From: an uncultured Opitutia bacterium
Lineage (GTDB): Bacteria > Verrucomicrobiota > Verrucomicrobiia > Opitutales > UBA953
DNA: 38,740 bases
NCBI GenBank assembly: GCA_903868455.1
Contig: CAIPVK010000189.1
Span: forward strand, 1 to 38,740
Direction: 5' to 3'
Part shown: positions 6,858-37,128 of the stretch, one piece after another
Numbering within the stretch: position 1 is the stretch's first letter
Layout: every line of letters starts with the position of its first letter
Notes under the pieces: model-generated
Database searches by the model: none
The model's input: the letters and a program-made list of their open reading frames with translations, nothing else
Told to the model about the DNA's origin: nothing
Position numbers and translations under genes: made by a program

Positions 6858-7666
6858 GCCTCGACCAATCCAATCCCAACCGCGTCGTCCTCCGCACGAC
6901 CGAGAGCATCCTGGCCTGCTTCAAGGCCCACCCGCGCGCGCTGCGCGAGCTCCGCGCCACGCGCGAGGCCGCCAAGGCGCTGCAGGAGGTCGCCGGATGG
7001 ATGGGCGGCCAAGGGCTGCCCGCCGTCGTCGTCGGCACCAAGGAGGTGCGCGAGCTCGCCGGGACGGACGCCGAGGCGGCCGCGATCACGGCGCGCCCGG
7101 TGCTCGGCCAGGCCAAGCCCTCGGACTTCGCCGACTGGCGCGACGAGGGGGCGACGGCCGTCGTGGCCGACGGCTTCACCGACCCCGCCGAGCTCGCCTC
7201 CGTCATCCGCGCCATGGCCGCCTTCGGCCACCGCCGCCTGCTGCTCGCGGGCGAGAGCGAGCGCCTGGCCTTCGACCCCCTCCTCTGGCAGCACGCCCGC
7301 GGCGCCCTGGAAGCCGTCCGCCTCATCCGCGCCCCCGCGCTGGGCGGCCTCCTCAGCCTGATCGAGCCGACGAGCGTCGTGCTGGGCTTCGACCCCAAGC
7401 AAGGGCGCTCGATCGCCGAGGCGGCGCCCGTCCGGGCCCCCGGTCGCGGGAATGTCCTGCTGCTCTCCGCCAACGGCCTCGGCCCGGCGATGCAGCCGAA
7501 GGCGGAGTACCTCTTCCGCCGCCCCGCCCAGACCGCGGACCACCCCCTTTCCGCCGGCGACGCCGCGGCGCTGATCTTCCATTGGAACGCCTCGGCTCCC
7601 AAGCCGAAGTCGAAGGAGACGGGGTTCTTCGCGAGGAAGAAGGCGAAGCAGAAGAAGGGGGAATAG
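6854..7666 (+). CDS. SpoU/TrmH-like methyltransferase-fold protein with divergent motifs and a Lys-rich C-terminal tail
   Basis: Track ORF 6347..7666; the in-frame GTG at 6854 overlaps the upstream stop (GTGA). VVADGFTDPAELASVIRAMAAFG resembles SpoU motif 1. NVLLLSANGLGP and HPLSAGDAAALIFHW resemble degenerate motifs 2 and 3. The TAG stop (7664-7666) lies inside the first GGGGAATAGGGG repeat word. Confidence 0.6.
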   Translation: MSLDQSNPNRVVLRTTESILACFKAHPRALRELRATREAAKALQEVAGWMGGQGLPAVVVGTKEVRELAGTDAEAAAITARPVLGQAKPSDFADWRDEGATAVVADGFTDPAELASVIRAMAAFGHRRLLLAGESERLAFDPLLWQHARGALEAVRLIRAPALGGLLSLIEPTSVVLGFDPKQGRSIAEAAPVRAPGRGNVLLLSANGLGPAMQPKAEYLFRRPAQTADHPLSAGDAAALIFHWNASAPKPKSKETGFFARKKAKQKKGE

Positions 7667-7691
7667 GGGATAGGGGGATGGGGGATGGGGG
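7657..7691 (+). other. G-quadruplex-type tract: five G4-5 runs with 2-4-nt loops, overlapping a stop codon
   Basis: GGGGGAATAGGGGATAGGGGGATGGGGGATGGGGG. The TAG of the SpoU-like gene is at 7664-7666. Confidence 0.6.
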
Positions 7692-8124
7692 ATTACGAGG
7701 ATTCGGAGGAGGCGGATGAGGCGGAGGATAAGCTACCGGGGCCGGAGGCCCCTCCGTAAGCCCGCTAGGACCGCTAGCACCGCTGGGAAGAGCTGGCAAA
7801 AGCTGGGAAGGGCTGAAAAAACTAGAAGGGGCTAGAAGAGGCTGGAAAAGGCGAAGACGAGGATTCCGAGGAGAACGAGGAGCACGGGGAAAAGGCGGTC
7901 GGCTCAGCGAGCCGCCCCTACCTCGATTGCAAATCTCGCAGGGCCGAAGGCCCTCCGCTGCCACCGCTGCTACCGCTGCCACCGCTGGACCTGCTTAACC
8001 ACCCCCACTATCCCCTTCCCCTATTCCCCAATTCCCCTATCCCTCATCCCATCCTCCGGCTCCTCCGCCTCCTCCGCCTCCTCCGAATCCTCGTCCTCCT
8101 CGTCATCCCCCTTCCCCACCCGCC
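7657..8124. repeat. intergenic mosaic repeat array R1
   Basis: Fills the whole spacer between the SpoU-like stop and the next ATG. Order: GGGG-AT words (7657-7691), GAGGAGGCGGA words, hairpin GGGGCC-GGA-GGCCCC, CCGCTAG words, AGCTGG/CTAGAAG words, REP half-site 7893-7922, hairpin GGGCC-GAA-GGCCC, (CCACCGCTG)n 7955-7988. Then the complements: CCCCTAT words (about 8000-8052) and CCTCC words (8053-8112). Confidence 0.9.
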
Positions 8125-8901
8125 ATGTCCGCTGACGTCCCCAATTCCTCCGCCTCCCCCTCATCCGGGGAGCCCACCATCAGCCTCCAGTCCATCAGCC
8201 GGAACCTCCTCGTCGCCCTCCAGCGGCAATTCGACCTCCTCGCCTTCAGCCTGGCCAACCTCCGCAACGAGGACCCCACCACCTACGACCTCTACTCCGC
8301 CCTGCCCCGCGTGATGCCGGCCCAGCCCGCCCACCTCACCCACGCCCAGATGCGCGCCTTCTCGCGCGGCCTCCTCCTGCGCACGAGCATCAACGACCTC
8401 CTCCAGCTCTCCGCGGCCGGCCTCGACCAGTGCCACCTCCTCTGCGCCTTCATCAAGGAGAAGGGCAAGAACCGCGCGCCCGACGCCGAGGCCGACCAGC
8501 GGGTCGCCAAGCGCCACCAGGAGTTCGCCCGGGCCAAGCTGCAGGACAAGTTCGAGACCCTCGAGAGGGAATACGGCATCATCAACGAGCTCGAGGACGC
8601 CCTCTTCAGCCTCGCCGCCGCCCTGCGCGTGCTGGCCAACGGCGGCCAGGTGACCAACGACGACATCTCGCCCGACGGCACCCTCGTCCTCGACTTCAAG
8701 ATGATCCGCGAGTCCGAGGAGGACGGCAAGAAGGTGGCCAAGCTCGCCGACATCGCCCGCACCTTCAAGCCGGGCGAGGCGCTCGAGCTCTCCGACGAGG
8801 AATTGCTCGGCCTCAACATCACCGTGGCCAAGTTCCTCGACAACCTCTTCCGCGCCGTGAACGACTACGGCACCTCGCAGCTCGGCGAGGCGAATGCCTG
8901 A
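8125..8901 (+). CDS. hypothetical protein (no family recognised)
   Basis: 258-aa ORF with balanced amino-acid composition and GC3-rich codons like its neighbours. ATG immediately follows the repeat array. It overlaps the downstream MFS gene by 8 nt. Confidence 0.7.
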   Translation: MSADVPNSSASPSSGEPTISLQSISRNLLVALQRQFDLLAFSLANLRNEDPTTYDLYSALPRVMPAQPAHLTHAQMRAFSRGLLLRTSINDLLQLSAAGLDQCHLLCAFIKEKGKNRAPDAEADQRVAKRHQEFARAKLQDKFETLEREYGIINELEDALFSLAAALRVLANGGQVTNDDISPDGTLVLDFKMIRESEEDGKKVAKLADIARTFKPGEALELSDEELLGLNITVAKFLDNLFRAVNDYGTSQLGEANA

Positions 8902-10171
8902 GGCCCCCGCCAGAAAGGCCTGGCTCTGGGTCGGGGCCGGCTTCCTCTTCCAGGCCATCCCCGGCGCCATCCGCGACGAGGCCCTCCCCGTCGCCCTGAA
9001 GAACGCCGGCCTGCCCGATGGCTGGAACACCCGCGTCGTCGGCATCCTCGGCCTGCTCGTCGGCCTGAAGCTCCTGTGGGCGCCGGCGGTCGTCCGCCTG
9101 GGCGAACCCACCCGGGTGATCCGCGCGGCGCAGGCCCTGCTCGTCGCCCTCCTCGGCTGGATCGCGCTCTCGGCCCCCGGGGCCGAGGCGAGCCCCTGGC
9201 CCCTGCTCGGCCTGCTCATCGCGCTCTCCCTGCTCTCGGCCGGGCACGACGTCGCCCTCGACGGCTACTACGTGGCCGCCCTGCGCGAGCAGGAGCGCAG
9301 CCGCCTCGCCGGGCTCCTCAACTTCGCCTCCAAGACCGGGTCCGTGCTCGCGGGCCCCTGCCTCATCTGGCTTGCCGGTTACCTCAGGGGCTCGGAGGAC
9401 AGCGCGGCCCAAGCCTGGGGCGACGCCCTGCTCGCGGCAGGTGGACTGGCCCTCCTCGCGTGGGTGGTCACGGCCCTCGGGCTCTCGCGCGAGCCGGCGG
9501 GCGCGCTGCCGGCCTCGCAGCCGATCGGCGCGAGCCTGCGCGAGCTCGCGACGGACGCGCGCTTCCCCGCCATCGTCGGCCTCATCCTGCTCTACCGCAC
9601 GAGCGAGGTGCACCTCGCGCGCGTGCTGCCGCTCTTCTCGGTCGCGCCGACGACCCAAGGCGGGCTCGGCCTGGACAACGAGACCTACGCCGTCCTTAGG
9701 CTGGCCACCGGGGTCGGCGGGCTGGCGCTCGGCGGCCTGATCGGTTCCTCCATCATCACCCGCCTCGGCATCGTGCGCAGCTTGGTGCCGCTCGGCATCG
9801 CCATGCACCTGCCGCTCATCGGCATCGCGTGGCTGGGGACCCACCCGGAACCGCCGATGGCGGTGATCGCCGCCGCCTTCGCCGTGGAGCACATCGCCTA
9901 CGGCGCCGGGGTCTGCGCCCTGCTGCTCGCCATGATGAAGGTCGCGGAGGGGCCGCACGCCGCCGTGCGCTACGCCGCGCTCTCCACCCTCGCCCTCATC
10001 GGCGCCTACCTGCCCGGCCTCTGGGCGGGCGCCCTCGCCCAACGCTTCGGCTACGGCGACTACTTCCTGCTGACGTTCGCCTTGGCGGCGCCGGGCGTCT
10101 GGGCCTCGGTCGTCGCCAAGCGCGCGCTGGCGGACTCAGCCCTTCGGCAGGAGCGTGACGGACTGGCCTAG
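8894..10171 (+). CDS. MFS transporter, AmpG/LplT-like
   Basis: About 12 predicted hydrophobic helices. The N-terminal segment VVGILGLLVGLKLLWAPAVV resembles the AmpG-family FKFLWSPLMD region. Subfamily is uncertain. Confidence 0.7.
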   Translation: MPEAPARKAWLWVGAGFLFQAIPGAIRDEALPVALKNAGLPDGWNTRVVGILGLLVGLKLLWAPAVVRLGEPTRVIRAAQALLVALLGWIALSAPGAEASPWPLLGLLIALSLLSAGHDVALDGYYVAALREQERSRLAGLLNFASKTGSVLAGPCLIWLAGYLRGSEDSAAQAWGDALLAAGGLALLAWVVTALGLSREPAGALPASQPIGASLRELATDARFPAIVGLILLYRTSEVHLARVLPLFSVAPTTQGGLGLDNETYAVLRLATGVGGLALGGLIGSSIITRLGIVRSLVPLGIAMHLPLIGIAWLGTHPEPPMAVIAAAFAVEHIAYGAGVCALLLAMMKVAEGPHAAVRYAALSTLALIGAYLPGLWAGALAQRFGYGDYFLLTFALAAPGVWASVVAKRALADSALRQERDGLA

Positions 10172-12688
10172 GTCGGCGCGGAGGTGGTCGCGGACGAAGC
10201 GGGCGACATCCTCGGCCGTCGCCGCGGCGAGGCGCGACTCCCAGGTGGCCTCGTAGTTCGCGCCGAGGCCGGTCAGCTCGCGGATCATCGCCCCCGGCAG
10301 GCGGCCCATCGGGGTCTGGCGAGCCTCGCGGCGCGCGACCCGCATGCGGCGCTTGGCCGACTCCAGCTCATCGGGCTCGAGGCGGGCTTCCGCGAGCCGA
10401 TCCAGTTCCGCGCGCATCTCGGCGAGCACCGTCGGCGCGGCCTCCGCATGGGTGCCGCCGTAGAGGTAGAACATCCCTTGGTCGGCGAGCTCGAGTCGCG
10501 AGGCGCCGACGAAGTAGGCGAGGCCCTTCTCCTCGCGCACCCGGCGGAAGAGGCCGCTGGACATGCCGCTCAGGAGCTCCTCGGCGAGGTTGGCCGCCGT
10601 GACGCGCGGGTCGGCGAAGCCGCAGTGCGGGAAGCCGACCAGGACGACCGCCTGCTCGCGCTCGACGGTCTCGCTGAGGGCGGCCGAGGGCCGGGTCGCG
10701 GCGACCGGCAGGCGGCGCAGGGGCTCGGCGACGCCGGAGAGGCCGGAGAACCGCGCGGCGACCCAAGCCTCCACCTGCGCGAGGTCGTAGTCGCCGGCCA
10801 CGCCGACGATGAGGTTGGAAGGGCGGACCAGACGGGCGTGCAGGGCGCGCAGGTCCTCGACCGTCAGCGCCTCCACCGAGGCGGGCGTGCCGCCGACCGG
10901 CTGGGCCAACGGGTGCTCGCCGTAGAAGGCGCCGAGCAGGCGCTGGCGCCCGAGCTCCACCACGTCGTCCAGCTCCTCGCGACAGGCGTCGGCCTGGGCG
11001 GCGCGCTCCTTCGCGACGGTTTCAGGCAGGAAGGAGGGCGTCAGGACGCCGTCGGCCACCAGCTCGGCCATGGGAGCGAAGTCGGCGGAGAGACCCTCCG
11101 CGAGGAGACCGGCGGAGAGCTGGGAGCCGTGCGGACGGAACGCCAGGCCGAGACGGCCGACGATCGCGGCGACCTCCTCCGAACCCCGGCGCGCGGTGTC
11201 GCGGGCGAGCAGGGTGGAGAAGAGGGATGTCAGCCCCGCCTTGCCGAGGGGTTCCTCGGCGACGCCGGCGGCGAAGATGACGCCGAGGGCGACCTTGGGC
11301 AGGGAGCGATCCGGCTGAAGCAACAGGCGCACGCCGTTCGGAAGGGTGCGTAGCTCGAAGGGGCCGGGCGCGGTCACGGCGGCCGAGGCGGCGGACGCGG
11401 CGGGCAAGGCATCGCGGCGCATCGAGGCCACGGTGCGGTTGGCGGGCGTCAGCCAGCGGCGGGCGACCTCGAGGAGGCGCTCCGGGGTGACCTCGGCCAG
11501 CTGGCGGACATTGGCCTGCGCCTGACGCTCGTCCCTCGCCATCGCCAGCGCGTAACCCGCGCGCGAGGCCAGTCCGCTCACCGTCTTCTGGGCGTTGACC
11601 ATGCCGACGGCGGCCTTGCGGCGCACCTTGGCGAAATCCTCCGGCGTCACCGGGCCCTTCAGGAAGCCATCGACCACGCCGACCACGGCGGCCTCGACCT
11701 CGCGGGGGTCGATCCCGGCCTCGCCGGACCAGCCTACCCAGAACATCCCGGCGTCCTCCACGCCCCAGGCGCTCGCGGAGATGGCGTGCACGATTCCGCG
11801 GCGCTCGCGCAGCTCGCGCCAGAGGAGCGAGTCGCGGCCCGACCCAAGCAAGCCGGCCACGAGGTCGATGGGCAGGGACTCGTGGGAGAGGATGCCCGGG
11901 GCGCGCCAGACGAGGACGCCGCGCGAGGTCGAGACGTCGCGGGTCAGCCGGACCTCGCGGGCGTCGGCCGGCGCGGGATCGGGCGCGAGGGCGCGCGCGT
12001 CGGGCGAGAGGCGGGGAAACCGGCCGAACCAGAGCGCGGCGAGGCGCAGGACCTCGGCGACGGGGACCGAGCCGGCGACGGCGAGGACCAGGTTCTCGGG
12101 CACGTAGCGGGCGGCGTGGTAGGCGCGCAGTCGCTCGGGGGTGACGGCGGCGAAGCGGGCCTTGTGCCCGATGATCGGGTGGCGCATCGGGTGCGCGCGG
12201 TAGGTCTCGGCGATGGCGGCCTCGGCCAGGACGCTGTCATGCTCGTCCTCGTACATGTCGATCTCCCGCAGGATGACCTCCTTCTCCAGGGTCGCGTCGG
12301 CGTCGGCCAAGGTCGGCGCGAGGGTCATCTCGGAGAGGATCTCCAGGGCGCCGTCGAGCGACTCCTCGGGGCCGTCGAGGTAGTAGACCGTGCGGTCGAA
12401 GCTCGTGTAGGCGTTGCTCGAGCAGCCCAGCGAGGCCGTGCGGTCGGTCAGCTGGCGCGCGGTCATCCGCGCCGTGCCCTTGAAGACCATGTGCTCGAGG
12501 TAGTGGGAGAGCCCGGACCCCTCGTCGACGCCCTCGTGGACGCTGCCGGTGCGGACCCAGACCTGGGCCGACATCAGCCCGCAGCCGGGACGCTCGCAGA
12601 CGACGACCTCGACGCCGTTGGGAAGGGTCAGGCGGACGGGCGCCGGGCCGGCGATCTGGTCGAGGGAAAGGCCTTCGAGGAGGGGCAT
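10136..12688 (-). CDS. M16 (pitrilysin/insulinase) family zinc peptidase, two fused M16 units
   Basis: Inverted zinc motif HYLEH in GLSHYLEHMVFKGT in the first half; the second half lacks HxxEH (typical inactive partner unit). 850 aa. ATG at 12688. Confidence 0.9.
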   Translation of the reverse strand: MPLLEGLSLDQIAGPAPVRLTLPNGVEVVVCERPGCGLMSAQVWVRTGSVHEGVDEGSGLSHYLEHMVFKGTARMTARQLTDRTASLGCSSNAYTSFDRTVYYLDGPEESLDGALEILSEMTLAPTLADADATLEKEVILREIDMYEDEHDSVLAEAAIAETYRAHPMRHPIIGHKARFAAVTPERLRAYHAARYVPENLVLAVAGSVPVAEVLRLAALWFGRFPRLSPDARALAPDPAPADAREVRLTRDVSTSRGVLVWRAPGILSHESLPIDLVAGLLGSGRDSLLWRELRERRGIVHAISASAWGVEDAGMFWVGWSGEAGIDPREVEAAVVGVVDGFLKGPVTPEDFAKVRRKAAVGMVNAQKTVSGLASRAGYALAMARDERQAQANVRQLAEVTPERLLEVARRWLTPANRTVASMRRDALPAASAASAAVTAPGPFELRTLPNGVRLLLQPDRSLPKVALGVIFAAGVAEEPLGKAGLTSLFSTLLARDTARRGSEEVAAIVGRLGLAFRPHGSQLSAGLLAEGLSADFAPMAELVADGVLTPSFLPETVAKERAAQADACREELDDVVELGRQRLLGAFYGEHPLAQPVGGTPASVEALTVEDLRALHARLVRPSNLIVGVAGDYDLAQVEAWVAARFSGLSGVAEPLRRLPVAATRPSAALSETVEREQAVVLVGFPHCGFADPRVTAANLAEELLSGMSSGLFRRVREEKGLAYFVGASRLELADQGMFYLYGGTHAEAAPTVLAEMRAELDRLAEARLEPDELESAKRRMRVARREARQTPMGRLPGAMIRELTGLGANYEATWESRLAAATAEDVARFVRDHLRADLGQSVTLLPKG

Positions 12689-12696
12689 GGGGGCGA

Positions 12697-12768
12697 GACG
12701 AGGAGGCGGAGGATGACGAGGAGGCGGAGGATGACGAGGAGCCGGAGGTGGCGGAGGAGCCGGAGGAG
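12697..12768. repeat. 18-bp tandem repeat, about 4 units (GACGAGGAGGCGGAGGAT)
   Basis: Units at 12697-12714 and 12715-12732 are identical. 12733-12750 and 12751-12768 are degenerate. The repeat begins 8 nt from the M16 peptidase start codon (12688). Confidence 0.85.
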
Positions 12769-12892
12769 GGATTAAAGGGAGAAAGGGATTAAAGGGATGA
12801 AGAGATGAAGGGGATTAAGGGAGGAGGGGATGGGAAGAGGGGATGGGGTGCAATACTTAGGGGGACTAGGGGGATAGGGGACTAGGGGACGA

Positions 12893-12947
12893 GGTAGGGG
12901 CGGCTCGCCGAGCCGACCGCGGACGCCTCGGAGAGGCATCCCTACCC
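12893..12947. repeat. REP-A structured palindromic element (full copy)
   Basis: GGTAGGGG-CGGCTCGCCGAGCCG-ACCGC-GGACGCCTC-GGA-GAGGCATCC-CTACCC: an outer GGTAGGG/CCCTACC stem enclosing two internal hairpins. Confidence 0.8.
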
Positions 12948-13250
12948 GTTTCAGCGGTGGCAGCGGTAGCAGCGGTGGCAGCGGAGGGCCTCCGGCCCTG
13001 CGAGATTTGCAATCGAGGTAGGGGCGGCTCGCCGAGCCGACCGCCTCTGCCTCGTGCTCCTCGTCATCCTTCGAATCCTCGTCTTCGCCTTTTCTAGCCT
13101 CTTCTAGCCCCTTCCATCGTTTTAGCGGTCCTAGCGGGCTAACGGAGGGAGCTTCGCTCCGGTAGCTTATCCTCCGCCTCCTCGTCATCCTCCCCATCCT
13201 CCACCTCCTCGCATTCCCCACTCCCCGCTCCCCAAAAGCCTCGCGATCAA

Positions 13251-13274
13251 CCGTGGCTACCACGGGGTTCTTTT
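13251..13274 (+). promoter_or_regulatory. terminator-like hairpin plus T-tract about 110 nt upstream of prfB
   Basis: CCGTGG-CTA-CCACGG followed by GGTTCTTTT. No plus-strand gene lies upstream, so any role (insulator or leader element) is speculative. Confidence 0.3.
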
Positions 13275-13382
13275 AAACTCTCGCCTCCCCTGCCCTCTTA
13301 CTTTTCACCCTAGGTTCATCGTGTCGCCTGGCTCCTGCCACGGCGGTCCCGCCTCCCCGCCATCCCGCCGTCCCGCCCACCC

Positions 13383-14525: not shown

Positions 14526-14542
14526 GCGGCCTTCGGCCGCTC
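14524..14542 (+). terminator. GC hairpin overlapping the prfB stop codon (no U-tract)
   Basis: GAGCGGCC-TTC-GGCCGCTC, an 8-bp perfect stem starting within the TGA (14523-14525). It is followed by G-rich words rather than T residues, so it is not a canonical intrinsic terminator. Confidence 0.4.
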
Positions 14543-14840
14543 GGCGGGTAGGCGGGGACAGCGGTTCGGCGGGGTTGGCGGGGAATAACTCGCTGCGCTA
14601 ATTTGGCGGGGTTGGCGGTTCGGCGGGGTCAGCGGGGTTGGCGGGAGAGAACGCGCTGCGCTCGTTTCCGTATGCTATGTTGGGAGCTGAAAGGTGGGCC
14701 GAGATGGGCCGGCTCAACCGTCCGACCACGGTCCGCTCAATAGCCGAATCGCATCCAAGGCCACGAGCGCAGCGAGTTCTGCGCCGCGGACCCCGCCGAC
14801 CCCGCTGCCCCGCTAGCTTCTCCTCCGCCCCTTTGCCGCC
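14543..14840. repeat. intergenic repeat array R8 (distinct GGCGGGGTTGGCGG vocabulary)
   Basis: Convergent spacer between prfB and the sulfatase gene. G-rich words GGCGGGGTTGGCGG / GCGGTTCGGCGGGG on the left, C-rich complements GGACCCCGCCGACCCCGCTGCCCCGC on the right. Three copies of the word ACTCGCTGCGCT, one of them inverted. Confidence 0.8.
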
Positions 14841-28696: not shown

Positions 28697-28752
28697 GGGT
28701 AGGGCTGGCTCGCCGAGCCGGCCGCGGACGCCTCGGAGAGGCGTCCCTACCC
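28697..28752. repeat. REP-A element (full copy, left of the giant gene)
   Basis: GGGTAGGGCTGGCTCGCCGAGCCGGCCGCGGACGCCTCGGAGAGGCGTCCCTACCC. Confidence 0.85.
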
Positions 28753-28804
28753 GGGGAAGAATTCAGACGGAAGAATTCAGATGAAAGAACGCCGAAAGAC
28801 CCAT

Positions 28805-28835
28805 GAAAACAAAGAGGCCCGCTTTCGCGGGCCCC
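28805..28835 (-). terminator. intrinsic terminator of the giant gene
   Basis: Minus strand reads GGGGCCCGC-GAAA-GCGGGCCTC followed by TTTGTTTTC, about 20 nt downstream of the TAA at 28859-28857. Confidence 0.75.
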
Positions 28836-28856
28836 CTTCTCTTTCATTTGAACTCT

Positions 28857-31800
28857 TTACTTTGAATTCTTCTTCCGACGGCGCAGGGCCGCCCCAGCGA
28901 GGGCCAGGCCGCCGAGCATCAGGCCGTAGGTCGAGGGCTCGGGGATGGGGGCGTAGGTGAGCCTGATCGCGGACCCGGTGTCGACCAGCGAGAGGAATGC
29001 CGGGTCGAGGCCGAATCCGGCGTAGGTCAGCCCGGTGGTGTCGAGGTCGAAGAACTGCGAGATCGAGCCCTCGTAACTGCTGATGGAGCCGTAGCTGATC
29101 AGGTCGAAGGCGTAGGTCTCGGCGGGATCGAAGTCCTGGAGGTCACCGGCCGTCGTGAGGTCCGACAGCGAGACGACCGTCAGGCCGACGCGGTTGAGCA
29201 GCGAGAGGGCGGAGATGTCCAGCAGGCCCGAGACGACGATCGTGTCGTAGTCCGTGCCGGCGTTGGGCGTGTAGACGCCACCTCCGGAGTTGAGGATCTC
29301 GAAGTCCAGGTTGCCGCCGGTCAGGGTCAAGGTGGCGAGGTTCTGGATGCCGGGCGAGTTGCCGGGGGCGAGCGTGCCGCCCGCCGCCAGCGTCACCGCG
29401 TCGAGCGAGCCCGAGCCGCGCAGGGTGCCGTCGGAGACGACGACGTCGGCGTTCGGGGCGTCGGCCGTCGTGAGGTTGAGCTCGGCGCCTTCCGTGAGCT
29501 CGAGGGAACCCGTGAAGCTCGTCAGGCCGGCCGCGACCGCGCCGGTGCCGGCAAGGCGGAGGGAGCCGGTGAAGTTGGCGACGTCGACCGAGGCGCCGGT
29601 GCCGACGAGGACCGTGGGCGAGCCGCCCAGGTTGGCGTCGTCCAACACGACCTCCTCGTCCGCGACATTGAGCGTCCCCTTGAAGGCCGAGCCCTGGATC
29701 TGGCCGCCCTTGTAGGCCACCGTGCCGGTGAAGTCGGCGCCGGAGCCGAAGTTCAGCGAGCCGCCGGCGCGGACCTCGAGGGTCGCGTTCTGGCCGGGGC
29801 GGTTGCCGGCCGAGGAGAGGTCGAGCGCGCCCGCGACGGCGAGCGTGCCCGAGAAGGAACCCAAACCCGTGAGGGTGGGCGCGCCGGTGAGGACGAGCGT
29901 CTTGCCCGGGTTGAGCTGCGAGGCGTCGACCGTGGCGCCCGTGCCGAGGGTGATCTCGGAAGCCGCGAGGTTGTTGATCGTCTCGGCGGAGACATTGCCC
30001 GTGACGGTCACCGTGGCGGGAGCCCAGTTGCCGGCGTTGAGAAGGCCGCCGCCCGCGAGGGTGATGACGTTGGTCGGGTTCAGGCCGGCGAGGTCGAGGA
30101 AGCCGCCGTTGATGACCACGGAGCCGGTGCCGAGCGCCGACACATGGCCGATGCTGAGCGTGCCCCCGCTGATGGTCGTGCCCCCCGAGTAGGTGCTGGC
30201 GGCACCCAGGATCCAGGTGCCCGCGCCGGACTTGGTCAGGGAACCGGAGCCGGAGAAGGCCTTGCCGAAGGTGCCGTCGCCGGCGCCGGCGAGGGTCAGG
30301 TTGGGATTGCCGTTGTAGACGAAGGCGACGTCGCCGTCGGTTCCGTCGAGCACCCAGTTGGCCCCGGAGAGCGACTCGAGGGTGGCGCCGCCGGAGTTGA
30401 CGGTGATGCCGCGGCCGTAGGCGGTGGTGCCGGCGGCGGCCATGCGGACGGTGCCGCCGTTGACCACAAAGGCGGCGGCGGCGTTGCGTAGCCCGCCGAG
30501 GGACTGGGAAGTCTCGCCGTAGGCCCAGTTCTCGAGCTCGACCGTGGCGCCTGAGTTGACGGTGACCACCGCGGTGCCGTTGAAGGCGCCGGAATAGAGG
30601 CGGCCTCCCGAGGCGAGGCGCAGGACGCCGTTGTCGACCGTGGTGGAACCGACGTAGGTGTTGGCGCCCTGGAGGGTCATGACCCCGGTGCCCGTCTTGC
30701 GGAGGCCATTGGTCGAGCCGTTCATCTGCGTGATCGCCCCGGTCACGGTGAGGTCGGAAGCCGGGGTGAGGGAGCCGCGGGAGACGGCGAAGGTCGTCAG
30801 GCCGCCGTTGTCCTGCAGGGCGAGCTTGGCGGCGCTGATCGTGGCGGCGTTGCCGGAGGCGTCCGAGGTGGCGGTGATCCCGGCCCCGTTGAAGAGCGAG
30901 TAGTTCCCCCAGGTGTCGCCGTTCCCGACGCCGGCGAGGGTGCCGCCGGTCATGGTGAGGGTGTTGGCGACCGTGGCGCGGAAGCCGGAGGAGATGGTGA
31001 TCGTCCCGCCGGAATTGACGGTCATCGCGCCGCGACCCGTGGTGTAACCGAGGGCGTCCTGGGCGTCGAGGCGGAGGGTGCCGCCGGAGTTGACCGTGAC
31101 GCCGCTGGCAAGCGTGCCGGCGGCGGAATTCGCCAGCGCGAGCGAGAGGACGCCGCCGTTGACCACGGCGCCTCCGGTGAAGGTGTTGCCTGCGGAGAGA
31201 CGCATCACGCCGGAACCCGTCTTGCGGAGGGGGGTGACGCCGGAGAGGATGGCGGAGACCAGGAGGTCGACTCCGGAGGCGTCGCCCGTGGAGCCGACGA
31301 CGAAGTCGTTGAAGCCGCCGGCCGCGGGCGTGTTTCCTGCGTTGAGCGCGAAGCTGTAGGTCGAGCCCGAGATGACCGAGCGGGCGGAGCCGTTGACGGT
31401 GATCGTGTTGTCCAGCGTGCCGAACTCGTTGTTGTAGGGCGCGGCCGACGCGAGACCGGTGAGTGTGCCGCCGGCGAGGGTCACGAGGCCGAAGTGGTTG
31501 TGACCGTTGGCGGAGGAATAGCTGACCCGGATGGTGCCGCCCTCGGCGATCACAGGGAGCGTGTCGGAGACGTTGTTATAGATGATGTTGACGCCGGTGA
31601 GCGTCAGCGTCGCCCCGGTCTTGACCGTCACGGCCGAGGACGAGAGCGCGCGGCCGTAGTTCTCGGTGGAGAGGACAAGCTCGCCGGAGTTGACGGTGGT
31701 GGCGCCGGTGTAGGTGCTGCGCGTGCGCAGGACGAGTGTGCCGGCGTCGACGGTCAGGGTGCCGGTGCCGGAAATGGCTCCCGTCAGGTCGAGGGTGCCC

Positions 31801-34800
31801 GCGCCGGCCTTGGTGAAGGACCGGCTGCGCGTGCCGCCGCCGTTGAGCGTGAGCGATCCGGTGGCGCTGGAGACGTCGATCGTGCCCGTGCCCTGGTCGA
31901 AGAACAGCGAGCGACCGCTGGTGACGGCGCCTGAACCGGTGTAACGCAGCGTGCCGCCGACAAGCGAGATGAAGCCGGTGGCGCCGGAACCGGCTCCGAG
32001 GTTCGACGCCGAGCCGTCGGCGACCGTGGAGAACTCAAGGACGCCGGCGTTGACCACGGTGCCGCCGGTGTAGGTGTTGGCGCCGGAGAGCGTGAGCGTG
32101 CCGTTTCCGGACTTGCGCAGGGTGCCGTTGGAGACGACGCCGGAGAGGGTCACCGCCGAGTCGGTGGTGAGGACCGGGCCATTGCCGCCCAGGTCGAACC
32201 CGCCGGAGAACGTGAGCGCGCCGGAGCGGGTGGCGTCGCCGAGGGTGGTGGAGGCGGCGAGGCTAACCGAGTTGGCAAGGGAGCGCGCGGAGGAGCCGTC
32301 CGAGGAGAGGCGGCCGCCCGAGAGGGTCAGGGTGCCGTTGCCCAGGGCGGTCGAGGAGCCGACGCGCAACGTGCCGTCGGACAGGCTGACGCCGCCCGAG
32401 AAGGTGTTGGAGCCGGCGAGGGTCAGGACACCCGCGCCGCTCTTGGAGATGGCGCCGTTGGAGACCGCGCCGTTGAGGGTGAGGTCGGAGGCGGAGCTGG
32501 CGGCGAGGGTGGAACCTCCGAGATTGAGCGCGCCGTTGAGGGTGCCGACGCCGGTCAGGGAGCCGCCGGAGAGGGTGATGGCGTTGGCGAGGGTGCGTCC
32601 GTTGATATCAAGGCTGCCGCCGGAGACGGTAACCGAGCCCGTGCCGAGGGCCGAGTTGTCGTTGGCCCGGACGACGCCCGCCTGGATGGTCGTGCCGCTC
32701 GAGTAGGTGTTGGCGCCGGAGAGCTCGAGGGTGCCGTTGCCCGCCTTGGTGAGCCCGCCGTTGGAGACGACGCCGGAGATCGCGACGTCGGACGCCACGG
32801 TGACGGCGCGGGTGGCGCCGCCGAGGTCCTGGGCGCCCGAGAGGGTCAGCGCGCCGGTGTCGGTCGCGTCGCCGAGGGTGACGTCGCCGCCGTAGACGAC
32901 GGCGACGGAGAGGGTCCGCGTGGTGCCGGAATCGGAGGAGAGGGCGCCGCCATTGAAGAGGAGGGCACCGGAGCCGAGGGCGCCGGCCGCGCCGAGGCGG
33001 ATGCGGCCCGAGGAGAGGGTCGTGCCTCCGGCGTAAGTGTTGGCGTTGCCGAGGGTCAGGGAACCGTAGCCGGACATGGCCAAGCTGCCGGAGGCGATGC
33101 CGTGGGTGCCGGTGATGGTGAAGTCGTTGAAGCCGGTGACGAGGACGCTCGTCGTGTTGACGTCCGCGCCGTCGATGCGGGCCGTCGTGCCGGTGGCCAG
33201 GTCGTTGAAGAGGACGGCGTCGGCGTCGAGGAACTCGGTGCCGGAATCGTCGGTGTCGAGCTTCCAGTTCTGCGCGCCGCCGATCGCGGCCGTGGTCCAG
33301 AGGTCGCTCTCCTCGCCGCTCCAGTAGGGAGTGGCGCCGGTCACGACATACTGCAGGACGCCGCCGTTTACCTCGAGGGAGGGCGTCTGGCGGCTGGAGG
33401 TCGTGGGCTGGGTGCCGAGGACGAAGGCCGAGAGGCCGGTGCCGCCGATGGATCCCCCGGTGAACGAGACCAGGTTGTAGGCGCCGTTGACGGCTCCCCC
33501 GCCACCGAGGTTGACCGTGACGGAGTTCGCGCCCCCGTTGGCCGTGAGCGCGCCGACGGAGAGGGCCGAGGAGACGGAGTAATTGGTGAAAGGCCCGATG
33601 TTCAGGGTCGCGGCGCCGGCGAAGGTGAGGTTGCCGGTGGTGAGGGTGCCGAGCACGCCGTTTCCGGCGGTGAGGATCGCGCCGGAAGCGGCCGTCACCG
33701 CTCCGACCGAGCCCGCGCCCGAGAGGACGGAGCCGCTGTCCAAGGAGACCGAGTTGGAGACGGTGCCCGCGACCGTGAGGGAGGCGTTGCCGGTGAGGGT
33801 GACCGCCCCGGCCACGGTGCCGGAGACGGACGCGCTGGAGCCGGCGGCGAGGGCGACGGTGCCGCCGACCGTGCCGGCGACGTTGAGGGTGGCGCCGGAG
33901 GCGACGCTGACGGCTGAGCTCGCCGAGAGGGAGCCGCCCGCCGCCACGGACAGGGTGCCGTTGCTCACGGTCGTGGCCCGGGTATAGGTGTTGACGCCCG
34001 AGAGGGTGAGCGTGCCGGCGCCCAGCTTGGTGAGGGCGAGGGTGCCACCCGACTGGCCGATGGCGCCGGAGAAGGAACCGTCGGAGACAATGAGCGTGTC
34101 CGCGCCCGCGATGGCGGAGATGACGCCCGAGCCGGCGAGGGTGCCGATGGTCTCGGAGTTGCCACCCTTGGCGAGACGGAGCGAGCCATTGACGGTCGTC
34201 GTGCCGGCGTCGGGGATGAAGCTGTTGGAGGTGGCGGAGCCGTCGCTCAGCTGCAGGATGGAACCCGAGCCGACGGTGGTGGCGCCGGCATAGCTGTTGG
34301 CGGTCCCGAGGAAGATGACGCGGTTCGTGCCGGCGATCGTGACGTCGCCGGTGCCGGAGATGCCGCCCGAGAAGTCCGTGCGGCCGCCCGCGGTGCTGCC
34401 GGTCAGGGTGACGGAACGAGCGAGGGTGACGGCTCCCGAGAAGGCCGCCGTGCTCGTGCCCGAGGTCGTGGCCGAGCCGAGGGTGACGACGCCGGCGCCA
34501 TTGGAGGTCACGCTGATGGCGCGGCCGAGCGTGACGCCGCCGGCTGTGGCGTTGACCAGGAGCGAGAGGTCGCTCGAACCGGTGGAGGCGTCGCCGAGGG
34601 TAACGGTGCCGGTGGTGCCGAGGGCGTTGGCGTTGGAGGCGACCACCGTGCCGGCGCGGACGGTCGTGCCGCCGCTGTAGGAGTTGGAGCCGGAGAGGAG
34701 CAGCGTGCCGGCGCCGGTCTTCAGGAGGGCGCCGTTGCCGATGCGGTCATTGGAGCCGTTGGTGAGGACGGCGGAGACCGTGAGGTCGACGGCCGAACTC

Positions 34801-36485
34801 AAGGTGGCGTCGGCGACCGCCAAGGTCAGGGTCTTGCCGCCACCGATGTGGTAGGCGCCGTTGGAGGCGGCCGAGCTGGATATGGTCGAGGCGGAGGAAC
34901 CGCCGACGGTCACGGTGCTGCCGTTGAACTCCCAAGTCTGGTACGAGCCGTTGGAGCCGGCGGTGGCGGTCATGGTGCCGCCGTTGAGGTCGACGTTGCC
35001 GATGACGTTGTAGGCGTCGGCGGCGAGGGTGCCGCCGTTGACGATCACCTTGATGGTGTTGGCCAAGGTCTGCGAGCCGCCGCCGAAGACGTTGTTGCCG
35101 GAGGCGAGGAGGGTGGCGCCGGAATTGACGGTGATCGTCCGCGAGCCGCTGGACTGACCCAGGGAGGTGTTGGTGTTGCCGGAGGCCCCGAGGCCGACCA
35201 GCGTGCCGCCGTCGACCGTGATGTTGCCGGTGAAGCTGTTGTTGACGTTGTTGAGCACCATGGTGCCGACACCGGTCTTGAGGATACCCCCGGCGGTTCC
35301 TCCGTTGGTGCCCGTCGGGCCGAGGGCCATGGTCACAAGGAGGTCGCGCCCGCTGTCCGTGGCGGTGGAGTTGACGTCGGCGACCGCGAAGGTCGACACG
35401 CCCGTCATGTTGAAGCCGCCGGTGCCGTTGAGGCGGGCCGCGCCGGCATAGGTGCCGCTGACGGTGACGACGGCGGCGCCGGTGCTGGTGCTGCCGAGGA
35501 GGATGCCGTAGCCGCCGGTGGCCCGGTTGGAGGTGATGGTGCCGCCGTTGTTCAGCGTGAGGTTGCCGATGCGCATCTCGACCCCGCTCTCGAAGCGGAC
35601 GATGCCGGTGCCCTCGGCGGCGATGCTGCGGTTGGCCGCCATGGCGGTGCCGTGGCCGCCGGTGAAGAGGTTGGTGGCGTTGAGGGAGATGGTGCCGCCG
35701 GTGCGGGCGGTGACCGTCGTGACGGAGTGCAACCCCTGGAAGGCGCCGAAGGTCAGGGTGCCGGTGCCGGCGTAGATCACATTGCCGTTGCTGGTGTTGG
35801 CCGAGATGGTCTCGTTGACGGTGATGTTGCCCGCGCCGCCGAAGGTGAGGGTGCCGCCGACCGCGATGTCGCTGTTGCCGTTGCCCGAGAGCGTCAGGGT
35901 CTGGCCGGCCGTGGCCATGTTGAAGAAGCCCGTTGAGCCGTTGGCGACGTTGAAGTTGTTACCGGCGGAATGCGAGTTGCCGACGACATTGATCGTGCCG
36001 CCATTCAGGACGCGGCGCGCGCCGTAGTCGGCGAGCTGGCCGAGGCCGCCCGCGGCGCCGTAGGCGAAGCTGTCGAGCTCGAGCGTGCCGCCGGCGTTGA
36101 CCGTGACGGCGTAGGCGTTGGTGTAACCCGCGTTGTAGAGCTGCCCGCCGGAGACCTTGAACTTGCCATCCGCGATCGAGAGATTGCCGGTGTAGGTGGA
36201 CGAGCCGGTGAGGGTGAAGGTGCCGGCGCCGGTGAGCGAGAGGTTGCCGGAGCCCGTGAGCGTGGTGGCCGAGAGGTTGAAGCCGGCGTTCGCGAGGGTG
36301 TAGGCGCTGCTGACGGTGACCGTGCCCGCGGTGATGGCGCTGCCGAGCGTGATCGTGCCGACGGTGCCGGCGAGGACGGCGTTGTCGCCGTTGGTCCAAT
36401 TGACGGCGGTCGCGCCATCCTCCCAGCCCGAGGCGCCGGCGGTCCAGGTGCCGCTGCCGCCGCCGGAGGCGGTGTTGACGGTCAC
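28857..36485 (-). CDS. giant (2,542 aa as called) autotransporter-associated beta-strand-repeat surface protein with a C-terminal PEP-CTERM sorting signal; 5' end apparently frameshifted
   Basis: Longest ORF in the window. Dozens of degenerate units of the type GTLTLSGANTYSGGTTVxxGxL (PF12951-like). The C-terminus PIPEPSTYGLMLGGLALAGAALRRRKKNSK is a PEP motif plus a TM helix plus a basic tail. The called start is a GTG with no signal peptide; see 36482..36586. Confidence 0.9.
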   Translation of the reverse strand: MTVNTASGGGSGTWTAGASGWEDGATAVNWTNGDNAVLAGTVGTITLGSAITAGTVTVSSAYTLANAGFNLSATTLTGSGNLSLTGAGTFTLTGSSTYTGNLSIADGKFKVSGGQLYNAGYTNAYAVTVNAGGTLELDSFAYGAAGGLGQLADYGARRVLNGGTINVVGNSHSAGNNFNVANGSTGFFNMATAGQTLTLSGNGNSDIAVGGTLTFGGAGNITVNETISANTSNGNVIYAGTGTLTFGAFQGLHSVTTVTARTGGTISLNATNLFTGGHGTAMAANRSIAAEGTGIVRFESGVEMRIGNLTLNNGGTITSNRATGGYGILLGSTSTGAAVVTVSGTYAGAARLNGTGGFNMTGVSTFAVADVNSTATDSGRDLLVTMALGPTGTNGGTAGGILKTGVGTMVLNNVNNSFTGNITVDGGTLVGLGASGNTNTSLGQSSGSRTITVNSGATLLASGNNVFGGGSQTLANTIKVIVNGGTLAADAYNVIGNVDLNGGTMTATAGSNGSYQTWEFNGSTVTVGGSSASTISSSAASNGAYHIGGGKTLTLAVADATLSSAVDLTVSAVLTNGSNDRIGNGALLKTGAGTLLLSGSNSYSGGTTVRAGTVVASNANALGTTGTVTLGDASTGSSDLSLLVNATAGGVTLGRAISVTSNGAGVVTLGSATTSGTSTAAFSGAVTLARSVTLTGSTAGGRTDFSGGISGTGDVTIAGTNRVIFLGTANSYAGATTVGSGSILQLSDGSATSNSFIPDAGTTTVNGSLRLAKGGNSETIGTLAGSGVISAIAGADTLIVSDGSFSGAIGQSGGTLALTKLGAGTLTLSGVNTYTRATTVSNGTLSVAAGGSLSASSAVSVASGATLNVAGTVGGTVALAAGSSASVSGTVAGAVTLTGNASLTVAGTVSNSVSLDSGSVLSGAGSVGAVTAASGAILTAGNGVLGTLTTGNLTFAGAATLNIGPFTNYSVSSALSVGALTANGGANSVTVNLGGGGAVNGAYNLVSFTGGSIGGTGLSAFVLGTQPTTSSRQTPSLEVNGGVLQYVVTGATPYWSGEESDLWTTAAIGGAQNWKLDTDDSGTEFLDADAVLFNDLATGTTARIDGADVNTTSVLVTGFNDFTITGTHGIASGSLAMSGYGSLTLGNANTYAGGTTLSSGRIRLGAAGALGSGALLFNGGALSSDSGTTRTLSVAVVYGGDVTLGDATDTGALTLSGAQDLGGATRAVTVASDVAISGVVSNGGLTKAGNGTLELSGANTYSSGTTIQAGVVRANDNSALGTGSVTVSGGSLDINGRTLANAITLSGGSLTGVGTLNGALNLGGSTLAASSASDLTLNGAVSNGAISKSGAGVLTLAGSNTFSGGVSLSDGTLRVGSSTALGNGTLTLSGGRLSSDGSSARSLANSVSLAASTTLGDATRSGALTFSGGFDLGGNGPVLTTDSAVTLSGVVSNGTLRKSGNGTLTLSGANTYTGGTVVNAGVLEFSTVADGSASNLGAGSGATGFISLVGGTLRYTGSGAVTSGRSLFFDQGTGTIDVSSATGSLTLNGGGTRSRSFTKAGAGTLDLTGAISGTGTLTVDAGTLVLRTRSTYTGATTVNSGELVLSTENYGRALSSSAVTVKTGATLTLTGVNIIYNNVSDTLPVIAEGGTIRVSYSSANGHNHFGLVTLAGGTLTGLASAAPYNNEFGTLDNTITVNGSARSVISGSTYSFALNAGNTPAAGGFNDFVVGSTGDASGVDLLVSAILSGVTPLRKTGSGVMRLSAGNTFTGGAVVNGGVLSLALANSAAGTLASGVTVNSGGTLRLDAQDALGYTTGRGAMTVNSGGTITISSGFRATVANTLTMTGGTLAGVGNGDTWGNYSLFNGAGITATSDASGNAATISAAKLALQDNGGLTTFAVSRGSLTPASDLTVTGAITQMNGSTNGLRKTGTGVMTLQGANTYVGSTTVDNGVLRLASGGRLYSGAFNGTAVVTVNSGATVELENWAYGETSQSLGGLRNAAAAFVVNGGTVRMAAAGTTAYGRGITVNSGGATLESLSGANWVLDGTDGDVAFVYNGNPNLTLAGAGDGTFGKAFSGSGSLTKSGAGTWILGAASTYSGGTTISGGTLSIGHVSALGTGSVVINGGFLDLAGLNPTNVITLAGGGLLNAGNWAPATVTVTGNVSAETINNLAASEITLGTGATVDASQLNPGKTLVLTGAPTLTGLGSFSGTLAVAGALDLSSAGNRPGQNATLEVRAGGSLNFGSGADFTGTVAYKGGQIQGSAFKGTLNVADEEVVLDDANLGGSPTVLVGTGASVDVANFTGSLRLAGTGAVAAGLTSFTGSLELTEGAELNLTTADAPNADVVVSDGTLRGSGSLDAVTLAAGGTLAPGNSPGIQNLATLTLTGGNLDFEILNSGGGVYTPNAGTDYDTIVVSGLLDISALSLLNRVGLTVVSLSDLTTAGDLQDFDPAETYAFDLISYGSISSYEGSISQFFDLDTTGLTYAGFGLDPAFLSLVDTGSAIRLTYAPIPEPSTYGLMLGGLALAGAALRRRKKNSK

Positions 36486-36586
36486 GGTCGCGCCATCCAG
36501 TAGAGGGTGGCGGCGGAAGTCGTCGCGGTCGCGCCGATGAACGCGGCAGCGAGAAGGGTACGCAGAGAGGTCCGTGCGGTACGCAT
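36482..36586 (-). other. orphaned signal-peptide mini-ORF; probable true 5' end of the giant gene in another frame
   Basis: My translation of the minus strand from the ATG at 36586: MRTARTSLRTLLAAAFIGATATTSAATLYWMARP-stop (TGA 36484-36482). The giant ORF's frame is open but start-less across this stretch. Adding one G at GGATGG (about 36493-36499) would read ...ATLYWDGATVTVNTASGGGSGTW. Confidence 0.7.
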
Positions 36587-36702
36587 AGATATAAGAAGGG
36601 GTATGGGTAAATTTAACGACCCGTCCCGAATCCCCGCAAGCCTCTTGGCCGGTTTTTTTTGGTTAAAGAAAGGAATACAGGCAGGGCCTACCCGTTCCAG
36701 CT

Positions 36703-36760
36703 GGGTAGGGTCGCGGCTACGTCCGAGACCTAGGGCATGGGCGTAGCCATGCCCTTACCC
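36703..36760. repeat. REP-B element (second copy, same orientation)
   Basis: Differs from 28414-28470 at 2 positions by eye (CGTGAC vs CGAGAC; CCCCTACC vs CCCTTACC). Confidence 0.8.
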
Positions 36761-36767
36761 TTGCAGC

Positions 36768-36823
36768 GGGTAGGGCCGGCTCACCGAGCCGGCCGCGGAC
36801 GCCTAGGCGTGGCGTCCCTACCC
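36768..36823. repeat. REP-A element (full copy, right of the giant gene, same orientation)
   Basis: GGGTAGGGCCGGCTCACCGAGCCGGCCGCGGACGCCTAGGCGTGGCGTCCCTACCC. Confidence 0.85.
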
Positions 36824-37128
36824 GGAGAAGAATTCAGATGAAAGAATTCAAAGTTCAGAACGGGAGACAGGCGGTCCGCTCGGTGAGCGGATCCTACCCA
36901 TTCCAGCGGTAGCTGCGGTAACAGCGGTGGCAGCGGGTCAGCGGAGGGGCCTTCGGCCCCAGGAGCTTATCCTCGTCATCCTCCCAATCCTCGTCACCCC
37001 TGCCCTTTCGGCCTTTTTTAGCCCCTTCTAGCTACTTCTAGCTTCTTTCCAGCCCTTCCCAGCCCTTCCCAGCCTTCCTCCCACAGTTGCCAACCACCCC
37101 GGAAACACCATCTAGAACCTTTCCGACC

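Follow-up and report, generated by a model that had tools for sequence, protein, structure and literature searches.

The locus described here raises the question of what fills its long intergenic spacers, and to what effect. It is a 38,740-nucleotide (nt) stretch from an uncultured Opitutia bacterium (contig CAIPVK010000189.1; hereafter the window, with a G+C content of 72%), in which an earlier note had found eight long spacers packed with short degenerate words and had proposed a lineage-specific system resembling repetitive extragenic palindromes (REPs) and bacterial interspersed mosaic elements (BIMEs). Judged by their sequence, the components are of known kinds, namely GTAG-tagged REPs or REPINs, BIME-like mosaics and polar G-rich heptamer repeats. 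The unusual part is their combination: every long spacer is saturated, at least seven word families follow one polarity rule, and these are fused with REP doublets. Most likely, selfish REP-type elements and arrays grown by slippage are kept in the orientation that gives hairpin or G-quadruplex (G4) barriers behind genes and pyrimidine leaders free of Shine-Dalgarno (SD) sequences. For identity, origin and function taken together, we put the probability of this reading at about 0.5.

Extent and composition of the repeat-filled spacers

The gene map is based on Pfam and metagenome gene calls. Seven of the spacers keep the coordinates first proposed for them, i.e., S1 (7667-8124), S2 (12689-13382), S3 (14526-14840), S4 (17822-18295), S5 (20864-21281), S6 (24409-24763) and S7 (28320-28856), whereas S8 runs from 36486 to 37128 according to the metagenome gene calls and not from 36587 to 37086. 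Two contigs of the same organism, L050 with 10 kb beyond the right end and L053 with 5 kb beyond the left end, bring the locus to ~53 kb. They add four long spacers with the same vocabulary, so that 12 of 12 long spacers are occupied, which bears out the density that had been called unusual. If the pattern is genome-wide, this would be among the most repeat-saturated bacterial intergenic landscapes known.

The listed words are indeed concentrated in the spacers, with an 8- to 160-fold enrichment per base over the remaining window. GAGGAGGCGGAGGA occurs eight times in spacers and CCACCGCTG, CCTCGTCATCC and CTAGGGG nine times each, all with no occurrence in the rest of the window, and GGTAGGG occurs 18 times against three. 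At a G+C content of 72%, 9-mer sharing is uninformative (coding DNA covers coding DNA to 66%), and 12- and 14-mers were therefore used. Forty-four percent of spacer bases lie under exact 12-mers common to another spacer (range 4-81%, the maximum being S1), compared with 7% for coding against coding and 1.4% for coding against spacer DNA. For 14-mers the figures are 38, 1.2 and 0.2%. S3 (4%) and S6 (21%) overlap little with the other spacers of the window. The words and the element of S3 are found again outside it, in L053, L050, a Joint Genome Institute (JGI) metagenome contig (L048) and a contig of a GTDB Opitutia metagenome-assembled genome (MAG; L030).

That the spacers consist almost entirely of such words was an overstatement. 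Arrays detected by Tandem Repeats Finder (TRF), with periods of 7, 8, 9, 10, 14 and 18 nt, make up 35% of spacer bases, and the rest consists of REP hairpins and unique AT-richer cores. Operon-internal and other short junctions (23631-23676 and 27458-27509) are free of word arrays, as had been noted. The arrays reach the ends of genes and overlap the stop codons at 7664-7666 and 18296-18298; their distance from the start codons at 12688, 24764 and 8125 was measured as 8-14 nt instead of 3-8 nt. Across the spacers, five assemblies made independently agree at 99.83-99.98% identity, which excludes an assembly artefact.

The ~56-nt elements among the words have the defining features of GTAG-tagged REPs and also fit the REPIN concept (Bertels & Rainey 2011, PMC3116915). 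They are doublets of a 27-29-nt hairpin that opens with GGTAGGG and has a 9-bp stem and a 3-nt loop, so that the label REP-like was apt. All 14 distinct units that were aligned have an unchanged GGTAGGG tag, and two REP units carry GTAAGG variants. In the alignment of 14 units, 96% of stem cells are paired and both sides have changed in five of the nine pairs; none of 500 shuffles did as well, and slid registers were 25-45% paired. The REP pattern gave 10 matches, all in spacers, against none in 100 shuffles, and about 30 REP units in 48 kb are all spacer-located. The window holds six doublets, whose GTAG tags face outward and whose arms are separated by 0-2 nt (0 nt at 28697-28753), and the doublet fold reaches -23.3 kcal/mol (z -4.3).

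Opitutus terrae is reported to be particularly rich in several GTAG REP families, among them head-to-head dimers 1-2 bp apart (Di Nocera et al. 2013, PMC3733652). The units here share with GTAG REPs and REPINs the extragenic location, the length of 27-29 nt, the unpaired GTAG at one end, the compensatory stems and the co-occurrence of several sequence types. Like GTAG-17 of O. terrae, which also belongs to the Opitutia, they pair head to head with 0-2 nt between them and form clusters of repeated singletons and dimers, a likeness to the families GTAG-17 to GTAG-20 that is one of description and not of alignment to the published consensus sequences. In contrast to those systems, REPs account for only about a sixth of the spacer, the remainder being tandem word arrays.

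The words are not freely shuffled from spacer to spacer, as had been thought. Over 323 nt, positions 7666-7987 of S1 are 77% identical to S2 read in reverse complement (13233-12952), and a looser alignment continues to both ends. The two copies differ by a 40-nt (4 x 10) change of copy number in a 10-nt array and by the presence or absence of a 56-nt REP doublet. Likewise, S7 and S8, which flank a giant gene of 7.6 kb, have about 250 nt in common in direct orientation (77-90% identity), and S8 contains an additional 76 nt that follows CCTACCC and itself ends with CCTACCC. This long-range collinearity and the strand polarity described below are the two features that the earlier note did not contain. 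The homologous mosaics thus bracket the giant gene, and because a relative (L005) lacks this gene at the same position, they may be the mark of an insertion or of a recombination-prone cassette.

A composite of ~100 nt, B-H-c, consists of a GAGGAGG-type array, a hairpin (H; CTACC-GGGGCC-loop-GGCCCC-TCC) and an ACCGCT-type array. At least 11 copies, in both orientations, are present across the organism and its relatives, and the hairpin exists in two compensatory stem versions, GGGGCC/GGCCCC and GGGAGC/GCTCCC.

REPs located within mosaics alongside other conserved motifs justify the comparison with BIMEs. As in Escherichia coli, at least two REP types alternate in orientation within a mosaic and are joined by further short conserved motifs; the mosaics occur between genes, at 3' ends and at convergent or co-directional junctions, and their copy number differs between strains. 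They are, however, longer (300-700 nt), strongly polar and present in every long spacer including divergent ones, and the motifs outside the palindromic units (PUs), which are single short boxes in E. coli, are tandem arrays here. Only the GTAG tag is shared with the PU (Y/Z) units, by eye, so that the likeness to BIMEs is one of organisation and not a claim of membership in that family.

Miniature inverted-repeat transposable elements (MITEs) such as Correia, ERIC and RPE are also non-autonomous and intergenic, have inverted ends, can supply stop codons and fold as RNA. The mosaics differ from them in having no defined termini, target-site duplication or fixed length, and their "inverted ends" are arrays of variable number. 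A MITE was rejected, as neither the spacer/gene borders nor the indels carry a duplication apart from the direct repeat CCTACCC at the 76-nt indel. A CRISPR array was rejected as well, since the units stand head to tail with no regular unique spacers and no cas genes are present in the window. The small dispersed repeats of Nostoc described by Elhai et al. in 2008 reportedly comprise very short hairpin elements nested within one another and tandem heptamer arrays, intergenic and with signs of mobility; their sequences and host differ.

According to a survey of satellites in prokaryotes, dispersed families of non-coding satellites, and their movement, are rare (PMC6749651), and no description of the present arrays in Opitutia was found in the literature searched. 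The suggestion that this is not a described family needs qualifying: GTAG REPs and GGGGA(C/T)T or GGGAATC arrays are published as kinds, and it is their combination that is unusual. REP/REPIN elements, BIME-type mosaics and polar G-rich microsatellites, which have been studied apart, are here fused under one orientation rule.

Strand polarity and turnover of the arrays

Every spacer carries G-rich word forms in its left half and C-rich ones in its right, regardless of the orientation of the flanking genes. Among the arrays with an absolute GC skew of at least 0.2, 41 of 48 keep this rule (binomial p = 6e-7). On the sense strand, GC skew is negative in the 100 nt upstream of all 12 starts (mean -0.54) and positive in the 100 nt downstream of nine of 11 stops (mean +0.28). 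Given this layout, whole spacers are predicted to fold end to end as single giant hairpins, and against dinucleotide shuffles the folds reach z -5.2 in S1 (-228.5 kcal/mol), z -4.2 in S5 and z -5.35 in S3.

The A arrays, built of units with a run of three or four G and an A/T-rich part, are found at 7657-7693, 8002-8050, 12858-12894, 18220-18304 (10.8 units), 20962-21000 and 21188-21234. They lie within about 50 nt of an open reading frame (ORF), on the sense strand after a stop or the antisense strand before a start. G4 motifs number 2.36 per kb in spacers and 0.22 per kb in coding DNA and always lie on the strand predicted by the rule; an A array folded alone with nearest-neighbour energies has no hairpin alternative, G4 being scored as a sequence motif.

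Rehm et al. (2015, PMC4692102) reported very similar repeats, GGGAATC in Xanthomonas and GGGGA(C/T)T of the STRR1 type in Nostoc. The repeats of that study occur between genes, run over stop codons and keep within 50 bp of ORFs, where a repeat is on the coding strand if it follows a stop and on the non-coding strand if it precedes a start. They often form convergent inverted pairs and differ in length between close relatives, and their function is not known. The A arrays have nearly the same units (GGGGAAT, GGGGACT, GGGGATA), the same rule of strand and position, inverted pairs, and a length that varies widely between relatives. In contrast to Xanthomonas, where divergent spacers are under-represented, such spacers are occupied here, and the host is a verrucomicrobium of 72% G+C. 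A further difference from both hosts is that at least six word families not of the G4 type share the rule and are interleaved with REPs.

These families are GAGGAGGCG, CAGCGGTGG/ACCGCTAGC, GCTGGGAAGA/CTAGAAGAGG, GGGATGAAG, GGCGGGGTT and GAACGAA/AATTAAG, most of which are unable to form three-tetrad quadruplexes. We therefore argue that the rule concerns strand composition or hairpin formation, in relation to transcription and translation, and not G4 as such. In either orientation the B-H-c composite conforms to the rule, even though its arms lack complementarity to each other, which indicates that polarity is a matter of strand composition as well as of pairing.

On the gene side, 18 of 27 genes have no 4-nt SD-like core. 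In genes behind repeat spacers, positions -25 to -1 contain 0-24% purines, i.e., 76-100% pyrimidine up to the start codon. With SD cores mostly missing and leaders rich in pyrimidines, initiation is probably largely SD-independent here. Examples of such leaders are 8100-8124, 12689-12713 and 24739-24763.

The arrays change quickly. One assembly is short of exactly one 9-nt C unit at 28556-28564, and the differences between assemblies that fall in spacers amount to 5 of 7 in one comparison and 24 of 25 in another, partly clustered. In a strain contig (L052), a different sequence of 110 nt replaces a 116-nt REP cluster of L050; an apparent 295-nt deletion in the same contig was discarded, as it is a scaffold N-gap and not a polymorphism. 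Within the C-rich arm upstream of a tRNA gene, L050 (12047-12090) and L051 differ by 15 substitutions or indels in 45 nt and are otherwise 99.8% identical. To judge from the aligned sequences, this cluster may be a tract of gene conversion or another variant of a word.

Between lineages the words themselves are replaced. The MAG contig L030 carries an orthologous sulfatase-phosphoesterase pair at 90.9% nucleotide identity, and its flanking spacers cannot be aligned with the orthologous spacers of the window. They match S1, S2, S4, S7 and S8 instead, at 80-92%, with the central D-C-H-B module inverted. The relatives L005, L006 and L007 show 93, 87 and 79% AlaS identity. In L005 (85% nucleotide identity), spacers are 130-370 nt long and consist of other 9-mers (GGGGCACAG / CTGTGCCCC, ACCGCTAAT), which surround the same GAGAAC..CTGCGCTCGTT core and keep the layout of G on the left and C on the right. 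A more distant relative has the words GGGACAG / CTGTCCC in the same layout. In relatives at 85% coding identity or less, the words are others, and polarity is present but weaker. As far as sequence comparison goes, words homogenised within a lineage and replaced between lineages while the architecture is retained represent a pattern of concerted evolution, from which we argue for ongoing copying between spacers, slippage and some constraint on layout.

The suspicion of lineage specificity proved correct, the words having been met in a single GTDB Opitutia MAG, at 91% coding identity, and on two JGI metagenome contigs only. A scan of genome contigs with a 20-mer of the B word, GATGACGAGGAGGCGGAGGA, gave 40 matches with L030 as the only true relative. 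The other 39, among them those on two further Verrucomicrobiota contigs (L035 and L042), were rejected as fortuitous hits to acidic coding segments of unrelated phyla. Scanning metagenome contigs for the H-hairpin pattern returned two contigs only.

Several observations accompany this turnover. G+C content varies widely among the close relatives, being 64% in L005, 56% in L006 and 67% in L007 compared with 72% in the window. Synteny with L005 breaks at repeat spacers: the sulfatase/metallophosphoesterase pair, the gene at 23677-24408 and the giant gene are absent there, and a cupin gene stands beside M16. Contigs also break inside the repeats, as both ends of L030 (1-20 and 3600-3623) lie in a D array and a REP, and a gap of 100 N covers a spacer in L052 (10206-10305). 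Opitutia MAGs of this lineage will therefore be fragmented at precisely these intergenic regions.

Origin and possible function

The reading we prefer, of selfish elements and slippage-grown arrays held in a useful orientation, involves three components. The GTAG REP hairpins, mostly inverted doublets, probably move in trans through a RAYT-type single-strand transposase whose gene lies elsewhere in the genome. The second component would be the ~100-nt composite, with its hairpin core between GAGGAGG-type and ACCGCT-type arrays, and the third the short tandem arrays of at least seven families, with units of 7-10 or 18 nt, which would grow and shrink by replication slippage. Blocks or whole mosaics may then be copied among spacers by transposition, recombination or gene conversion.

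As to function, a polymerase leaving a gene in either direction would first traverse the arm that is G-rich on the non-template strand, prone to G4 or R-loop formation, and then the complementary C-rich arm, which would complete the hairpin. The hairpin could serve orientation-independent termination, insulation or 3'-end protection, as proposed for REPs and BIMEs (BIME roles are summarised in PMC3733652). Transcripts starting in the AT-richer cores would have unstructured pyrimidine leaders suited to SD-independent initiation. Composition, hairpin covariation, polarity, collinearity, rapid turnover and copy-number polymorphism are seen directly in the sequences, and RAYT mobilisation, the copying mechanism and all functional effects are what we infer from these patterns; we are rather confident of the identity and origin of the elements, and the functional part is offered tentatively.

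Several results weigh against this reading. As a departure from known GTAG REP and REPIN systems, no RAYT (PF01797) was seen among the genes of the organism's 53 kb or of the relatives' loci examined. Neither target-site duplications nor clean pairs of empty and filled sites were found, and mobility is therefore deduced solely from non-orthologous similarity and indels. Scans for sigma-70 promoters and intrinsic terminators showed no enrichment in spacers. Seven of the 48 arrays break the polarity rule, S6 is C-rich throughout and S7 is only weakly polar. The census covers 12 long spacers in a single genomic neighbourhood, and the hypervariability of spacers at strain level fits neutrality as well as function.

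This last point leads to the view that the spacers are purely selfish or neutral filler without a positive role, in which REP-type elements and slippage-prone microsatellites pile up wherever they are harmless and polarity is no more than a filter that removes orientations giving G-rich, SD-like or G4-forming RNA in leaders. We regard this as possible but doubtful. Differences between strains are concentrated in spacers, spacers are wholly remodelled at 9% coding divergence, close relatives have short spacers with other words, and Rehm et al. report no regulatory role for their analogous repeats (PMC4692102). On the other hand, polarity extends to the flanks of stop codons and to the convergent S3, where a leader constraint is absent. 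The layout also persists while words are replaced, which suggests selection on the architecture, and all 12 long spacers are occupied.

Taken further, the functional argument would become one of a clade-wide intergenic "grammar", in which each non-operonic spacer is a polar G-to-C palindrome, made up of REP doublets and co-evolving word families, that acts as an orientation-independent insulator and SD-free leader, its words replaced wholesale between sister lineages by an active homogenising mechanism, RAYT-like or other, able to carry short non-coding satellites about the genome. We consider this extension unlikely.

That the arrays are primarily G4 or i-motif regulators is distinctly improbable. 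Here GGGGAT-type arrays, and perhaps GGAGG ones, would act through DNA or RNA G4 near gene ends, as has been proposed for Xanthomonas and Nostoc, with REPs and the other words incidental. The motifs are 10-fold denser in spacers than in coding DNA and usually contain at least four G-runs, and both the rule of strand and position and the overlap with stop codons are those of PMC4692102. However, families that cannot form three tetrads (CAGCGGTGG, GCTGGGAAGA, GAACGAA, AATTAAG) share the polarity, and each G arm has a complementary C arm, so that a duplex or hairpin competes with the quadruplex.

We also give very little weight to protein-binding arrays or curved DNA, i.e., 9-10-nt words with phased A-tracts (GCTGGCAAAA, CTAGAAGAGG) that bind a nucleoid protein, gyrase or IHF or bend the DNA into supercoil domains. 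Periods cluster at 9-10 nt, the A-runs of D arrays are 10 nt apart, and BIME-1 and BIME-2 bind IHF and gyrase in E. coli. Against this, 7- and 8-nt periods occur just as often, no protein emerged as a candidate, and the wholesale change of words between close relatives would require binding proteins that co-evolve.

Hidden low-complexity coding, a CRISPR-like array or an artefact can be dismissed, and small RNA genes are very improbable. The 20-mer GAGGAGGCGGAGGATGAC would read EEAEDD and is met in acidic coding segments of unrelated genomes. However, unit lengths of 7, 8 and 10 nt, stop codons within units and the use of both orientations rule out coding, the spacers have no Rfam match at the gathering threshold or at E <= 0.1, regular unique spacers and cas genes are absent, and the five assemblies agree.

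Architecture of individual spacers and gene neighbourhood

S1, between two hypothetical genes (6854-7666 and 8125-8901, both +), is a complete mosaic of the order A-B-H-c-D-B-REP-hairpin-c-a-b. Its G4-type A array (GGGGAAT/GGGGATA, period 7-8; 7657-7693, +), supported by TRF and a G4 motif, includes the stop TAG at 7664-7666. On the + strand it is followed by the B array GAGGAGGCG (period 9; 7697-7729), the hairpin H at the core of B-H-c (CTACC-GGGGCC-GGA-GGCCCC-TCC; 7733-7755) and, at 7762-7852, the TRF-detected c array CCGCTAGNA (period 9) and D arrays GCTGGGAAGA / CTAGAAGAGG (period 10). A GTAG-tagged REP hairpin of the alpha type (7896-7922, -) precedes the C-rich arm (7955-8112, +), which is composed of the c array CCGCTGCCA, an a array (the C form of A, with a G4 motif at 8002-8050, -) and the b array TCCTCCGCC.

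S2, between the M16 peptidase (-) and release factor (+) genes, is the S1 mosaic reversed. All its modules are given on the + strand. The G-rich arm (12697-12894) contains a B array (18-nt unit GACGAGGAGNCGGAGGAT, 3.9 copies), an E array (GGGATTAAA/GGGATGAAG) and an A array (GGGGACTA). An alpha-beta REP doublet with outward GTAG tags (12892-12948), missing from the collinear S1 copy, comes next, then the C array CAGCGGTGG (period 9; 12952-12984), whose 33 nt are the exact reverse complement of 7955-7987, and an alpha REP hairpin (13017-13043). The C-rich arm (13050-13234) has b and d arrays, a C-H element (H at 13144-13165), and b and a arrays.

The convergent S3, between the release factor (+) and sulfatase (-) genes, has F arrays of GGCGGGGTT (period 9) flanking GAGAAC..GCTGCGCTCGTT cores at 14542-14668, with an inverted C-rich partner at 14763-14814; its core is also present in L005. 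S4 lies between the metallophosphoesterase and glycogen phosphorylase genes (both -) and comprises a REP (17953-17979, +), a D array (17989-18028), B-H-c (18030-18148, H at 18068-18090) and a second REP (18191-18217, -). It ends in the longest A array (CTAGGGGA/ATTGGGGA, 10.8 copies; 18220-18304, -), which is G-rich on the sense strand of the phosphorylase gene and includes its stop (18296-18298).

S5 has GAACGAA, an A array (20962-21000) and an AATTAAG array in its left arm, and b (21100-21191), a (21188-21234) and e (21231-21281) arrays in its right arm. S6, upstream of alaS, contains a G4-type motif (24455-24501, -), a CTAAGTNT array and the e array CCCTTCAT (24697-24750), and a homologous remnant precedes alaS in L005 and L006.

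S7, between the NAD kinase (+) and giant PATR (-) genes, begins with a B array (28329-28381), a REP (28380-28406), a gamma-delta doublet (28413-28470) and an alpha-beta doublet (28479-28535). Its middle part holds a C array (28539-28580), H (28587-28609), b (28616-28650) and a REP (28663-28689), and the right part the alpha-beta doublet 28697-28753 and GAAGAATTCAGA words (28755-28789). The convergent junction also holds a canonical bidirectional intrinsic terminator (28811-28838) with a 12-bp G+C stem and T-runs on both strands, the sole clear one in the spacers. In S8, between the giant gene (-) and mnmA (+), a gamma-delta doublet (36702-36759), an alpha-beta doublet (36768-36824), GAAGAATTCAGA words and a REP (36871-36898, -) are found together with a C array (36904-36944), H (36943-36960), b (36969-36996) and d arrays (37025-37078).

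The sequence derives from ENA metagenome assemblies, and among AlaS proteins with a named source the nearest belong to Verrucomicrobiota and Opitutae MAGs. As for the genes, the window begins with SCO1/SenC (221-1039), Ppx-GppA (1044-1982) and LpxR (1989-2867), all gene calls on the - strand. An ORF at 750-2918 (+) was rejected as a gene because the calls on L053 place these three there. The divergent spacer 2868-3021 (154 nt) is without word arrays, yet its left part is G-rich and its right part C-rich. It is followed on the + strand by the Mla operon (3022-6387, MlaE starting at 3022), DUF5069 (6384-6857) and the hypothetical genes around S1, and then by a major facilitator superfamily (MFS) gene (8894-10171, +) and the M16 peptidase gene (10136-12688, -). 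Beyond S2 are the genes for a class-I release factor (13383-14525, +), sulfatase (14841-16208, -), metallophosphoesterase (16205-17821, -), glycogen phosphorylase (18296-20863, -), an acyltransferase/AMP-ligase (21282-23630, -) and a hypothetical protein (23677-24408, +). The right part contains alaS (24764-27457, +), NAD kinase (27510-28319, +), the giant PATR/PEP-CTERM protein gene (2542 aa; 28857-36485, -) and mnmA (37129-38205, +).

Outside the window, a Phd/YefM-RelE/ParE-like toxin-antitoxin pair, recognised by eye from ORFs, is located at 20-585 of L048, directly upstream of a 290-nt D-B-H-c-D-F mosaic spacer. About 530 nt to the right of the window, a tRNA-Arg(ACG) gene (L050 12146-12220) stands alone between repeat-filled sub-spacers of 367 and 341 nt.

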